A stretch of 38,797 nt of DNA from a virus, in the IMG/VR virus record IMGVR_UViG_3300006149_000039. One strand, written 5' to 3'. The notes beneath the pieces are model-generated. The model was not told where the DNA came from. It saw only the letters and a program-made list of their open reading frames with translations, and did no database searches. Position 1 is the first letter of the stretch. Every line of letters begins with the position of its first letter. A program made the translations under genes and the position numbers. Below are positions 24,941 to 31,669 of the stretch, in pieces.

Positions 24941-27900
24941 ATGTCATCTTTTACAGAATACCATAAAAAATGGAAAGAAGAAAATGGAAGAGGAGAAGAT
25001 AGTCCATATAAACAAAGAAGCATAAGTGAAATCGAAAAAAGCGCAGATGAATATGTAAATAGTATCTTTGAAAAAGAAGGAAAGATATGGGATAAGATTA
25101 AAAGTAAAGCAAACAATAATTTAAGTTATTCTAATAATATGCAGAATTTTATAGATAGAAATACTCGTAATCAAATGGCAAAGCCTATGGAAGATTATAT
25201 GAATACTAAGAAAATTGCTATGCAGAATGTTTCTAATTATGTGCAACAAAATGCGAAACAACAAACAGTAACAAAGGAAAAAAGTACATGGGACAAAATA
25301 AAAGAAAAACTTCAATTTGGAACAGATACTAATAGGGTACCAATTTATATGGATAATTCAGGTAAAGTTGATAAAAATAAAACAACTTTAGCAATAGCAC
25401 AACAAAACTTTGAATCAGATAAACAAAAATTACGTATGATGGAAAGTAAAAAAGCGTATGACAAAAAAATGGAATTATATGAAAAAGCAATGGATGAGCA
25501 ATTAAAGAATACTTTGAACTATAAAGAAGTACAAAGACAAAATCCTAATGCAACGGAAGAAGAGTTGTTGAAAATAACAAAAAAGAAAAATGAAGAATTT
25601 TCTCGCAACTTTGTTGAGTGGTTAGCAGATATGGAACCTGCTGGACGAAATGCAAAAATAGAAGGTTTTACAAAAGATGTAATTGGATTAGATAAAAAAA
25701 TAATAAGCAATAAAAATGAGAAATATGATATAAAAGCAAAAGTTCAAGCTATAGAAACACAAAAAGAAGCTGATAAGATTAACCAAGATATGCAGAATGG
25801 AAATTACTTGTCTTCTGCTTTACATGTGGCTAGAGGACTTCCAGTAGGTGCAATGAATGCTGTTATAAAAACAACAACAGCATTAGAAAACTTGAGTGGA
25901 TATAAACATCCGTCATCTGCTGGTTACAATACTGACCCTGTAAAAGAAGCTGAATTGCAAACAAGAAAATATCAAGAGACTACTTCTAAAATTAATAATG
26001 GAATCGTTCAAACAGGTTCTACAGTAACTAATACAATAGGGGAAATGGTACCAGCTATGGTGGCTAATGTAGCAGTGCCTGGTTCTGGTGCTGTAGTTAA
26101 TGCTGTAAATGTTGGTTCTTCTGGTTATCTTGATGCTTTAAATGAAGATGGTACCAATAAAGCACAAGCAGGTTTAACAGGAACATTAAAAGGATTAGCG
26201 AGTTTCACAATTGAAAAAATTACAGGAGGAAACATTTTGTCAGAGGGGTCATTAGATGATTGGGCAGCAAAGACAATTGCTAATAAAACAGCAGGAATTA
26301 CTAATAAGACAGCTAATAAAGTTGCTCAAAAAATTGCTTCTAAGATTTATGAAGTAGGTGGAGAGGTATTAGAAGAAGAGCTAGAAAATCAAGTTGATTA
26401 TTTGATTGATGCTACAATAAATGATAAAGGTATTACCTTGAAAGAATGGTTGAATGAGCAAGGAGAGACTGTTAAAAACACAGCCTTAACTCAATTAACT
26501 TTAAGCTTGTTTGGTTTAGGTGGTGATACTTATAATAAAGTAAATGAGTATTTGCTTGATAGTGATGCTAAAAAATGGGTGAATGAAGCACAAAAAATAA
26601 TTGATAAAGAAAATTTAGAAATTAATACAGATAAAATAAAAGAAAGAGAATTAAGAAATGTATTAAATCAAGTTAACATCAAAGAAGATAATCAGGCAAG
26701 CAATAATACCACTAATTTGCAACAAAACCTAATAAATAATCAAATTAATCCATTAGAACAACAAATTAATCAAGCAGAGAATAAAATGTCTCAAAATGGA
26801 AATATGGAGCAAATAGAAGATAGTAATAAAAATATAGCTTATAATAATTCAAATTATTACCAAACAGCGAATAAATACAAATTAGATACAAATAATAAAA
26901 CTATAAAAGGCATATATGAAGTAGCTTCTAAAAGAGGTGTTAGTGTTATTTGGGATGATACAGCTTTTACTAATTCTAGTCAAAATGCTAAGTGGACAGT
27001 TGATAATGAAGGTAATAGAAGTGTTGTTTTAAATCCAAAAGCAAATACTGATACTGCATTACAAAGTGTTATGATACATGAATTGACACATGATTTTGAA
27101 GGTACTAAGGAATATAATAAAATAAGTTCTATGGTACTAGAAAGATTGAAGAGTTCTAATGATTATGATAATATAATGTCAGATATTGCGAATGCTTATC
27201 AAAAAGAATACAAGAATATGTCAAAAGAACAATTTAGTAGTATGATTGAACAAGAAGCGATAGCTGATTATCTAGGAGAGAATTTAGGAAATCAAGAGTT
27301 TGTAAATGATTTAGTGAGAAGTACAGATAGAACTCAAATTCAAAAGATTATAGATTGGGTTAAGAATAAGATTACATCATTAAAAAATACTTTAACTGGA
27401 AACAAAGAGCTTAATTACTGGAATAAGATTAAAGATAATTTTGAGAGAGCATATAATCAAGAGTATCAAGGAAATAATAATGATAATAGGTTGTCAATTG
27501 CTGGTAAAGAAGGAATGAATAATGCTATTAAACAAGATACAAGATACATACAGTTAGAAAGAAGCTATAATAAGGCACAACAAATGCAAAAGATAGGAAT
27601 TGATAATGAGAAAATAAGGCAATCTACTAATTGGTTTCAAGATAGAAATGGCGATTGGAAGTTTGAATTTTCAGATAAGGATATGAAGTTAAAAAGCAAT
27701 GTTAATCTGAAAGAAAATACAACGTATAAATTAGGCGATATTTTAGAGCATGATACATTATTTACTGTGTATCCTGAATTGATAGAACATAAAATTACAT
27801 TTAAGAATTTAAATGATGTCAATGGTTTATATGATAGAAAAACAGGAGAAATAAACATTAATAACAAATTAATATTGTCAAATTCAGCAAAAACTATTGA

Positions 27901-30900: not shown

Positions 30901-31669
30901 AACAATTCAAAATTCTAATAAATCTGATGAAATAAAAAGGAAAGAAGTTCGAGAAGTTCAAAGGAAAATTAACAATGTTATTGAAAAAAGATTGGAAAAG
31001 TATGAAAAGATTAAAGTAACATCTTTAACTGCTAAGGTTGGAGATAGTGAATATTATAAATATAATAATGAGTGGACAAAATTATCAGATAAAGAAAAGG
31101 AAAAAAATAAAGAGATTTCTTTAAACTCTTATGCTGACTATAAAAATAAGATATACAATTTAACTGAGAAAAAGACAGATAGTGGAGAACTTAAAGAAAA
31201 TCAACAGCTAAAAGACAAAGATAAAATAGATGTGTTATTGGATTCTAATTATTCTAATAAAGAAAAGGCATCTATTTATGAGAATTACATTAAATCAAAA
31301 TCTAAAGAAGACGAAATGGATTTGTATGATATAATGAAGCTTACGGGGATAAATATTAATCAATATTTAAGATATGAACAACAAGAATTTAAGAGTGATA
31401 AAGAAGCTGATGGTACAAAGAATGGTAAAACAATAAAAGGTAGCAAACCGAAAAAAGTGTATGACTATGTTAATAATATGAATATAACTAGGGAACAGAG
31501 ATTAGCAATTTTGGGTAGTCAGTACAAATTAAACAGAGTAGAACAAAAGGAATTATATAGTTATCTTTATAATTTACCAATAGAAACAGAAGAGGAAAGA
31601 ATGAAAATGTTTTCTAAGTATAGTAAAAATTTTATAATTTACAATGATGATACGATGGATTATAAGTAA
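24941..31669 (+). CDS. Giant (2242 aa) multidomain virion protein with two zincin-type HExxH motifs. Polyvalent / ejection protein or atypical tape measure.
   Basis: HELTH at nt 27077-27091 (aa 713-717) and HEIQH at nt 27914-27928 (aa 992-996). Gly/Ala-rich hydrophobic stretches (VPAMVANVAVPGSGAVVNAVNVGSSG) and a C-terminal TM-like stretch ATVYMIAPAIINSLLLG. Confidence 0.6.
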   Translation: MSSFTEYHKKWKEENGRGEDSPYKQRSISEIEKSADEYVNSIFEKEGKIWDKIKSKANNNLSYSNNMQNFIDRNTRNQMAKPMEDYMNTKKIAMQNVSNYVQQNAKQQTVTKEKSTWDKIKEKLQFGTDTNRVPIYMDNSGKVDKNKTTLAIAQQNFESDKQKLRMMESKKAYDKKMELYEKAMDEQLKNTLNYKEVQRQNPNATEEELLKITKKKNEEFSRNFVEWLADMEPAGRNAKIEGFTKDVIGLDKKIISNKNEKYDIKAKVQAIETQKEADKINQDMQNGNYLSSALHVARGLPVGAMNAVIKTTTALENLSGYKHPSSAGYNTDPVKEAELQTRKYQETTSKINNGIVQTGSTVTNTIGEMVPAMVANVAVPGSGAVVNAVNVGSSGYLDALNEDGTNKAQAGLTGTLKGLASFTIEKITGGNILSEGSLDDWAAKTIANKTAGITNKTANKVAQKIASKIYEVGGEVLEEELENQVDYLIDATINDKGITLKEWLNEQGETVKNTALTQLTLSLFGLGGDTYNKVNEYLLDSDAKKWVNEAQKIIDKENLEINTDKIKERELRNVLNQVNIKEDNQASNNTTNLQQNLINNQINPLEQQINQAENKMSQNGNMEQIEDSNKNIAYNNSNYYQTANKYKLDTNNKTIKGIYEVASKRGVSVIWDDTAFTNSSQNAKWTVDNEGNRSVVLNPKANTDTALQSVMIHELTHDFEGTKEYNKISSMVLERLKSSNDYDNIMSDIANAYQKEYKNMSKEQFSSMIEQEAIADYLGENLGNQEFVNDLVRSTDRTQIQKIIDWVKNKITSLKNTLTGNKELNYWNKIKDNFERAYNQEYQGNNNDNRLSIAGKEGMNNAIKQDTRYIQLERSYNKAQQMQKIGIDNEKIRQSTNWFQDRNGDWKFEFSDKDMKLKSNVNLKENTTYKLGDILEHDTLFTVYPELIEHKITFKNLNDVNGLYDRKTGEININNKLILSNSAKTIEGTLIHEIQHIIQNLEEFEGGRSQRTSKLAYYNSLGEIEASNTKTRFLEEKYNGKELSNIPPESSKANPKHQRLDNYLENRNLFDKAKDSIYNYIKGKVGDNYEISKEVNEKNKDQHSNLVVGRKGRRYVESENNSGSLKLPISDKLSKQSNGTWQQYLKDTSVNTGTRETLKDIRRVPISEENLQRSKKAEKESKAVIPLIESQQANVTPLRTIEEVANDSNITDLQAFQEATEQLDTPSDRILQQRENDLNSKGIEKSPTIDYIKQKRSKEKASLTEIKDVLAQKFVNKGHYIDKLAKQIGNDNLTYLYDRTLNTFNEAQISIGDYQINSKGEKVGKSIIDIFEPSKKANLSLEFDDYLLNKHNVSRYAHEKGIFGDEISAVDSKKIVEHYENKYPDFKEWASEVSKYNDNNLRDLVDNGMISENTYKKLKEMYGDYVPTYRDITDNISQYIDDSVGGNTLGKATQSDRDILSISESMAEQTLMIKKAIRMNNLGIELYNAIGKKGAETLKGVEFSDIAIQTLGGDVIEKATDGSNKFIIFQDGEMTKFKISDELYTAFSKDTLQNKINNSKVAKAMLTPIEKMSKAQRELLTTYSIGFAIRNPFVDFQEGLFNSKYGGATFVKNWAKALYNIGIKGSWYESYKNNGGTANTYFDYSKGIVPIKTKNPIKMFGDAIKKVNEVIEQAPRLAEYISTIEHGGSIDQALYNSAEVTTNFKRGGDVTKAVNKYGANFLNASVQGLDKLYRNLSGQRGWKGYANILTKATVYMIAPAIINSLLLGDDKDYEDLPEYIKDEYFLFKTGEGRFFRIPKGRTSSVIGGLARRCLEAGQDKDVDWKSLVDTTINQLAPNNPFKDNIIAPIVQAVKNEAWYGGEIVSNRLKGLPVAEQYDESTDELSKFIGEKLNISPKKINYVLDQYSGGIGDVVLPIITPQAENNILEDKFTTDSVMKNKHISEYYSKLEELEKNKNSQNASDEDKLKYKYMTEVSEDLSDLYNTKKTIQNSNKSDEIKRKEVREVQRKINNVIEKRLEKYEKIKVTSLTAKVGDSEYYKYNNEWTKLSDKEKEKNKEISLNSYADYKNKIYNLTEKKTDSGELKENQQLKDKDKIDVLLDSNYSNKEKASIYENYIKSKSKEDEMDLYDIMKLTGININQYLRYEQQEFKSDKEADGTKNGKTIKGSKPKKVYDYVNNMNITREQRLAILGSQYKLNRVEQKELYSYLYNLPIETEEERMKMFSKYSKNFIIYNDDTMDYK

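Follow-up and report, generated by a model that had tools for sequence, protein, structure and literature searches.

Polyvalent proteins, a class defined by Iyer, Burroughs, Anand, de Souza & Aravind in 2017 (PMC5512222), are thought to be a main route by which phages deliver many activities at entry, and almost none of them has been studied biochemically. Zincin metallopeptidases (MPTases) are the commonest domain of the class, 8% of the MPTase-bearing members carry more than one of them, and the LPD38 domain is confined to phage-type polyvalent proteins (PMC5512222). Here we describe a giant open reading frame (ORF; 24941..31669, plus strand) in the IMG/VR virus record IMGVR_UViG_3300006149_000039, a stretch of 38,797 nucleotides whose full length we call the window. 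By its domain content, the product of this ORF (2242 aa, 255.9 kDa, pI 6.4) is a mosaic phage-type polyvalent protein, and we consider it probable that a short-tailed, Page-like phage of gut Clostridia carries this large protein inside its virion and ejects it.

Several observations place the giant protein in the polyvalent class. It is a very large multidomain chain in which we found LPD23, a SprT-like zincin, a second zincin and LPD38. Pfam reported LPD38 (PF18857) at aa 1770-1924 (nt 30248..30712, plus strand) with 114.7 bits against a cut-off of 27 bits (E 7e-33), LPD23 (PF18838) at aa 875-918 with 38.7-41.2 bits against a 27-bit cut-off (E 8e-10), and, as a borderline match, SprT-like (PF10263) at aa 949-999 (E 1e-6), the latter over profile positions 19-74 of 108 only, together with a weak match to DUF6782, a putative metallopeptidase family. 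The gene also lies in a portal-terminase phage virion locus, with TerS, TerL, portal, major head and fibre genes on the same strand. Finally, the domains are shuffled. A search of 5.8 billion proteins gave 99 relatives of 1331-3790 aa, whose precomputed Pfam annotation includes ART-PolyVal, ParB-like nuclease (ParBc), MuF_C, LPD3, peptidase M78, nucleotidyltransferase and acetyltransferase domains; all but the last of these stand in for the two peptidase modules (B and C, below) in homologues, and a 3.2-kb cassette of the gene is swapped in the nearest relative.

The preliminary description of this DNA had proposed a polyvalent protein rather than a tape measure, with domain-wise hidden Markov model (HMM) searches as a check. 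These searches agree with it: LPD23 and LPD38 scored above threshold, no tape-measure Pfam family was reported even for segments at E<=10, and no tape-measure PHROG matched. MPTase-PolyVal, which we take to be Pfam PF18818, gave no reported match to the whole protein (E<=1), to its segments (E<=10) or to 18 homologues of module B (E<=1); these Pfam negatives are bounded by the HMMER filters, which discard most matches above E~0.1. Among the PHROGs only one unannotated family matched (aa 1658-2020), and NCBIfam held no family for the giant protein and none for Page gp20.

The ORF starts with ATG and was translated over 2242 codons without an internal stop, and its 6729 of 38797 nt amount to 17.3% of the genome, in agreement with the single ORF filling 17% of it that had been described. 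A Shine-Dalgarno sequence, AAGGAGG (24930..24936, plus strand), shares bases with the stop codon of the preceding ORF, which ends at 24931, and its GGAGG (24932-24936) lies 4 nt 5' of the ATG. The two HExxH motifs were read where they had been reported. HELTH (aa 713-717, nt 27077..27091, plus strand) is followed by the invariant Y753 (nt 27197-27199) and E772 (nt 27254-27256), and HEIQH (aa 992-996, nt 27914..27928, plus strand) is directly followed by IIQNLEEFEGG, which contains the described NLEEFEGG, with conserved E1002, E1022 and E1024 after the motif. Given the 17 His of the giant protein, 0.011 HExxH motifs would be expected by chance, against the two observed.

Other features of the preliminary description held in part. 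Gly/Ala-rich hydrophobic stretches had been placed before the motifs: Gly and Ala together indeed make up 21-22% of aa 301-500, ahead of both, and the hydrophobic 19-residue peaks at aa 373-391 (Kyte-Doolittle 1.31) and aa 291-309 (0.98) stay below transmembrane level, so that these stretches are hydrophobic and not clearly transmembrane. The transmembrane-like segment mentioned for the C-terminal part could be located at aa 1748-1766 (nt 30182..30238, plus strand), a helix of sequence ILTKATVYMIAPAIINSLL that is the most hydrophobic stretch of the protein (1.49) and lies just ahead of LPD38. With LPD38 at aa 1770-1924, the last 1200 aa can no longer be called unassigned; their description as partly coiled-coil fits the long helices predicted at aa ~1963-2019 by the AlphaFold model and the 34% Lys plus Glu in aa 2001-2100.

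BLASTP of the giant protein against its relatives resolved five blocks, A to E (all on the plus strand), behind a Lys/Glu-rich N-terminal region (aa 1-220, nt 24941..25600; pI 9.2) of which the nearest relative retains the first ~110 aa at 66% identity. Module A (aa 221-640, nt 25601..26860), found in ~75 of the 99 relatives, is weakly hydrophobic and rich in Gly and Ala, with Gly and acidic residues invariant at many positions, and has no Pfam, PHROG or PDB relative. Module B (aa 641-870, nt 26861..27550; ~55 of 99) is a gluzincin-like peptidase domain without a Pfam model. Module C (aa 871-1100, nt 27551..28240), seen by BLASTP as a block at ~870-1170 in ~30 of 99 relatives, joins LPD23 to a zincin with the motifs HE[IL]QHxIQxxE and GEIEA. 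A basic, poorly conserved linker (aa 1101-1260, nt 28241..28720) leads to module D (aa 1261-2020, nt 28721..31000), which is ~750 aa long and mostly helical and was detected by HMM in 28 of the 99 relatives (29 of 100 with the query). Module E (aa 2091-2242, nt 31211..31666), a conserved C-terminal domain, occurs in ~77 of 99 homologues, always C-terminal and after either D or an alternative module, D'; the Pfam segment searches gave no known relative of it, and the PDB profile search gave chance-level matches only. D' is ~850 aa long, directly precedes E in the ~60 relatives that lack D (for example at aa ~980-1830 of the relative P0018), and carries no Pfam annotation. We detected no homology between D and D', which may be functional alternatives.

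Evidence on the status of the peptidases comes from the nearest relative, the protein P0002 encoded by contig L026. The TerL, portal, scaffold, head, adaptor-like, 608-aa and 303-aa proteins of this contig are 80-96% identical to those of the window, and one fibre-like protein just 62%. At the DNA level, the two are ~83% identical across 14860-25271 and again across 28511-31266. Between these flanks lies an exchangeable cassette of 3.2 kb (nt 25272..28510, aa ~111-1190, plus strand) that holds modules A, B and C and whose 3' breakpoint (~28511) falls in the basic linker; L026 has in its place an unrelated ~3-kb sequence without any HExxH and with only a short remnant of module A, and Pfam finds LPD38 alone in P0002. 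Since the flanks are kept while A, B and C are swapped, we regard the zincins as exchangeable cargo. Across the family (n=100), HExxH is absent from 26 members and occurs once in 42, twice in 30 and three times in two. HExxH is present in 15 of the 16 ART-bearing members and absent from most of those with ParBc or MuF-C, in a sample biased by how the homologues were collected. We considered that the peptidases might be needed to release other cargo and rejected this, as the coupling to cargo is not general, the ParBc and MuF-C members being mostly HExxH-free.

Near the 3' edge of the cassette, inside the giant ORF, we noticed a perfect TTGACA-17-TATAAT at 28149-28177 (plus strand), one of two in the window. 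An internal promoter for a shorter D-E product was considered and dropped, because no convincing in-frame start with a ribosome-binding site was found within ~450 nt.

Module B carries the first of the two zincins. H713, E714, H717, Y753 and E772 were among the invariant columns of 18 diverse sequences, and the same five residues did not vary in any of 146 B domains, which came from 143 representatives with less than 50% identity to one another; the columns around this putative catalytic set average ~36% identity. An exhaustive HMMER search of 1.84 billion representatives returned 5,269 proteins at E<=1e-3 (that is, about 5,300 clusters at 50% identity), 732 of them at E<=1e-30, and most of the top 150 are 2000-2700 aa long with B at about residue 450-900. 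A word-indexed homologue search with the module B profile gave only 9 short proteins. The AlphaFold2 model of B and C, built from 21 sequences (mean predicted local distance difference test score, pLDDT, 81.8), places in B, in domain numbering, a helix at 14-25, strands at 29-32, 44-48 and 54-58, the HExxH helix at 64-80 and the helix bearing E772 at 123-142. A helix, a sheet, an HExxH helix and a later helix in this arrangement form the zincin core (PMC5512222). The predicted HExxH helix thus follows a small sheet and a downstream Glu, the putative third zinc ligand, sits on a later helix, as in gluzincins, and module B is probably an active gluzincin-like peptidase, as judged from its conservation and predicted fold. 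Among the low-ranking Foldseek hits, those with the best probabilities were zincins (IrrE/PprI, ZMPSTE24, selecase, jannalysin and ERAP1), with probabilities of up to 0.94 over ~57 residues, none of them significant. A profile search of PDB sequences with module B likewise yielded no relative, all matches being at chance level.

Module C is conserved as a single unit that includes both LPD23 and the HExxH region and is marked by TGWFQDxNGxWKFExSD, HE[IL]QHxIQxxE and GEIEA. Wherever we examined it, LPD23 makes up the N-terminus of a peptidase unit of ~200 aa and is not a domain of its own. Across 43 C domains, H992, E993 and E1022 were present wherever aligned, and H996, E1002 and E1024 nearly always. 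The AlphaFold model also gives module C a zincin-like arrangement, in which strands lead to the helix that bears HExxH (344-362), with the conserved E1002 and E1022 further on. A profile search of module C against PDB sequences gave chance-level matches only.

We asked whether B and C had arisen by duplication and rejected this: a profile-profile alignment (37 columns, probability 66%) showed no more in common than the last strand and the helix with HExxH, which marks them as two different zincin families. As complete putative catalytic sets are under strong constraint in both, we take both zincins to be active, an activity that conservation and predicted fold would support.

Module C is also the only part of the giant protein to match Pseudomonas F116-like podophages. 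It is 28% identical (E 1e-18) to H66_0060 of phage H66, a 3787-aa protein whose record states that it was 'verified by mass spectrometry as part of the virion' and whose gene lies just before the holin gene. In H66_0060, LPD23 is followed by HELQH...GEVEA, with a second HExxH (HEMVH) just downstream. One F116-like record names its homologue 'internal virion polymerase'; we discarded an N4-like RNA polymerase for the present protein, in which Pfam found no polymerase domain.

The C-terminal part links the giant protein to proteins with a likely role in the virion. An AlphaFold2 model of module D from 15 sequences (pLDDT 77.5, predicted template-modelling score 0.75) predicts a mostly helical unit of large size. 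Compared with predicted viral structures, it gave 67 matches at E<=1e-3, with query-normalised template-modelling (TM) scores of 0.54-0.86 among the top 40, and all the named matches were phage polyvalent proteins, some with RelA/SpoT, methylase or lytic transglycosylase domains. Pfam LPD38 thus covers only part (about a quarter) of the ~750-aa module. Module D is common to Page gp20, pelagiphage HTVC204P gp40, PTXU04 gp25 and many phage polyvalent proteins. HTVC204P gp40, 1253 aa long and mostly module D, is encoded immediately ahead of the tail fibre gene and behind the genes for the tail-tubular and internal virion proteins, where gp16 lies in the T7 gene order. As to a likeness to T7 gp16 itself, D had no significant match among solved structures by sequence or by fold. 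The structure model of PTXU04 gp25 (2197 aa) matches D at a TM score of 0.70, and this protein is essential by CRISPRi-ART (PMC11879866). Another LPD38 protein, phi24B gp47, is abundant in virion proteomics and invisible in cryo-electron microscopy, and its authors proposed it as an encapsidated ejection protein (bioRxiv 10.64898/2026.04.10.717836).

Considering all the above results, we propose the following model. The first ~110 aa, module D with LPD38, and module E would form a frame that serves for capsid incorporation, tail exit and cell entry. Set inside this frame, the 3.2-kb exchangeable cassette would supply module A and two unrelated zincin endopeptidases, one in module B (HELTH, Y753 and E772) and one in module C (LPD23, HEIQH, E1002 and GEIEA). 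The 256-kDa protein would be packaged late and enter the host together with the DNA, after which both peptidases would work in the infected cell, where they may cut host proteins, the carrier itself at flexible linkers, or both. The homologues also suggest the packaging and ejection that the model assumes; likewise, the label of virion protein used in the preliminary description draws on gene position and homologues, and goes beyond the sequence itself. In the giant protein, and in 54 of the 69 relatives that lack other recognised enzymes (a biased sample), peptidases are the only enzymes that can be recognised. This argues against a role limited to releasing other cargo, and the near-identical virion of the nearest relative, without zincins, argues against one limited to assembly.

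Several of our findings weigh against this model. The replacement of D by D' in ~60 homologues means that the constant frame is only partly true, and the 26 of 100 members without HExxH indicate that the peptidases are dispensable for the frame. The homologues from which packaging and ejection are drawn share single modules with the giant protein, at 23-28% identity. For module D, no solved relative was found by sequence or fold, the best Foldseek E being 0.52. The SprT-like match reached 28.7 bits with the whole protein (cut-off 25.6) and 23.7 bits, below the cut-off, with the segment. None of the 18 module B sequences reached a Pfam threshold, the weak matches being to putative metallopeptidase families, and the model of B and C had no significant match in the PDB by Foldseek (best E 0.29). 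Finally, the host is uncultured.

A broader extension of the model is that the B family as a whole represents a large set of capsid-delivered zincin effectors, injected with the DNA and cleaving specific host proteins early in infection; we put it forward as a possibility, and a doubtful one. If true, the host targets could include defence or envelope proteins, as the preliminary description had suggested, and the A-B-C cassette would be an arms-race locus of gut Clostridia phages.

Other explanations of the peptidases may be proposed. They might trim the giant protein or the head proteins in the procapsid during assembly, with no host role at all. Trimming of this kind has been proposed for some MPTases, such as that of P1 DdrB, which is processed before packaging (PMC5512222); family scans of the window found no dedicated prohead protease, and the long, poorly conserved Lys/Glu-rich linkers are possible cleavage sites. 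We nevertheless judge this explanation unlikely, because the nearest relative, with head and tail genes 80-96% identical, has no HExxH and evidently does not need one for assembly, and HExxH is also missing from over a quarter of the family (26 of 100). The phage moreover has a scaffold-like protein, and such proteins are typical of protease-independent podophages.

The peptidases could also aid penetration, cutting cell-wall peptides, S-layer or envelope proteins on tail exit, in the manner of the lytic transglycosylase of T7 gp16. The authors of the phi24B study suggest such a role for the metallopeptidase of gp47 (bioRxiv 10.64898/2026.04.10.717836). Related D-module proteins, including JC1 gp69, bear lytic transglycosylase domains, Page encodes a virion-associated cell-wall hydrolase just upstream of gp20, and our family scans of the window recognised no virion-associated cell-wall hydrolase, the endolysin apart. 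On the other hand, the known peptidoglycan metallopeptidases (M15, M23, LAS) to our knowledge use motifs other than the HExxH plus Glu seen here, Pfam found no cell-wall-binding domain, and similar hosts are infected by the nearest relative, which lacks these modules. A role in penetration is, in our opinion, quite unlikely.

It is very improbable that the HExxH modules are inactive relics, retained as structural spacers in a large ejection protein. The lack of a significant match to solved peptidases and of a Pfam peptidase family for module B would be in line with decay, but none of the 146 B domains departs from the set of five putative catalytic residues, in surroundings that average ~36% identity, and C has kept its metal-binding and acidic residues as well. 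The reading of the ORF as the tape measure of a long-tailed phage with incidental HExxH motifs, to which its great length, Gly/Ala-rich hydrophobic stretches, long helices and place among tail genes might point, is effectively refuted, given that no tape-measure Pfam or PHROG family matches it, that family scans detected no tail tube, sheath or chaperone genes, that its virion genes match those of the podophage Page, that its homologues exchange enzymatic domains, and that both HExxH motifs are strictly conserved, the opposite of the tape-measure homology with unconserved motifs by which the preliminary description proposed to refute its own reading.

Turning from the alternatives back to the ejected polyvalent protein, its genomic setting agrees with a short-tailed phage. 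The first and last 77 bases of the window (1-77 and 38721-38797) are identical, which indicates a circular assembly and thus a complete genome of ~38.7 kb. The late genes all lie on the plus strand. They begin with TerS (14674-15039) and a TerL split into 15036-16100 (354 aa) and 16129-16683 (184 aa), followed by a virion block upstream of the giant ORF (16934..24931): portal (16934-18655), a scaffold-like protein, the major head protein (19580-20425), a 116-aa ORF, a 201-aa protein that resembles the adaptor of podophage SU10, a 608-aa virion protein, a fibre-like protein of 223 aa and a 303-aa ORF. Five more ORFs, including a second fibre-like protein, lie 3' of the giant ORF, and holin and amidase genes end the block. 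Family scans of the structural region detected no tail tube, sheath, chaperone or tape-measure family.

Among isolated phages, the portal matches only those of the Bacillus megaterium phages Page, Pony, Pookie, Palmer, Pavlov and Pascal (26% identity over >90% of the portal), and five proteins of the window match Page gp4, gp12, gp15, gp16 and gp20 with their order kept. Page is a podophage by electron microscopy (PMC3990757). By these virion genes, the phage is short-tailed and related to Page, and its late region had no DNA match to an isolated phage in a megablast search of 50,697 phage records. Close relatives with the same gene order, among them prophages, lie in contigs and metagenome-assembled genomes of gut Clostridium and Clostridia that are uncultured, and one or more of these relatives adjoin bacterial genes. 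A scan with a module C alignment identified the gut Clostridia metagenome-assembled genomes; a whole-protein scan of genome contigs found no relative. Gut Clostridia are the most likely host.

We made several further observations on the window. TerL is interrupted by a +1 frameshift near 16071, and the single 547-aa ORF of relatives aligns across the break (aa 1-345, then aa 346-547 in the next frame). The split is probably an assembly error, because a relative's contig has further split genes; the alternative is a defective gene. Fibre-like ORFs (23335-24006 and 34528-35712) flank the giant gene and both match phrog_9116, 8763 and 24267, which suggests two receptor-binding proteins with a common module. 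The only long minus-strand ORF (895-1872) encodes a CI-like repressor with helix-turn-helix and peptidase S24 domains. Bro-N, ERF recombinase, DnaD-like and N6/N4 DNA methylase matches were found among the ORFs scanned in the early region (2295-8702); no integrase was among them, yet relatives appear integrated in Clostridia genomes. A pentapeptide-repeat protein of 182 aa (11655-12203, plus strand), also early, is a candidate anti-restriction or anti-defence factor, as such proteins can mimic DNA. The GC content is 25-33%, and from ~2 kb onward the plus strand shows a GC skew of ~+0.2 to +0.45 and a strongly positive AT skew, which fit a single direction of transcription.

Giant LPD38 podophage virion proteins are already known, as are chains with several MPTases, so this locus does not represent a new kind of system, and the general picture of polyvalent proteins drawn in 2017 is unchanged by our results. 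Our additions are smaller: the B-type zincin family proves to be large and strictly conserved, LPD23 belongs to one unit with its peptidase, the LPD38 module extends well beyond the Pfam model, and the cassette is cleanly exchanged in the nearest relative. B-type zincins are highly abundant, their H-E-H-Y-E set never varies, and Pfam has no model for them. The ~750-aa D module occurs in proteins that are essential (PTXU04), found in the virion (phi24B) or encoded at a T7 gp16-like position (the pelagiphage). The giant protein is also an unusually simple example of its class, as two zincins are its sole recognisable enzymes and sit in a cassette absent from the closest relative, which allows a clean comparison of what the peptidases contribute.

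Set beside the described systems, the giant protein resembles T7 gp16 (internal virion protein D) in its proposed role, that of a large internal ejected protein with an enzymatic domain; with no similarity in the solved-structure search, this is an analogy of role and not membership. It would share with the N4 virion RNA polymerase and P1 DdrB the status of a capsid-packaged giant with zincin MPTase domains (PMC5512222), and differs from them in that Pfam finds no RNA polymerase or DdrB-ParB domain in it. Like phi24B gp47 (2811 aa, from an E. coli Stx podophage) and PTXU04 gp25 (from an E. coli podophage), it is an LPD38-bearing giant podophage protein; the cargo of gp47 is instead LPD5, LPD1 and MuF-C, and only module D is common to gp47, gp25 and the giant protein. 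H66_0060, from the Pseudomonas podophage H66 (an F116-like Hollowayvirus), offers a homologue of module C, a second HExxH and a place in the virion verified by mass spectrometry. It is far larger, carries a methyltransferase and LPD3, comes from a phage of a Gram-negative host, and has no LPD38 detected by Pfam and no BLAST match to B or D.

The closest isolated phage is Page, which has the portal, adaptor-like, virion and fibre proteins in common with ours. Its gp20 (1679 aa, annotated as 'hypothetical protein') likewise carries module D with LPD38 (E 3e-30) and is encoded late in the virion block. The identity is 23% over D only, with no other significant BLAST match, Pfam reports LPD38 alone in gp20, and the gp20 gene directly precedes the holin genes, whereas here five or six more ORFs intervene. 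Compared with the polyvalent proteins of Iyer et al. (PMC5512222), neither peptidase here matches Pfam MPTase-PolyVal, and besides the two zincins there is no recognisable effector such as an ART, a nuclease or a methylase. The features in common are a giant multidomain chain encoded in a virion-gene locus, LPD23, LPD38 and zincins, more than one peptidase per chain, and domain shuffling.

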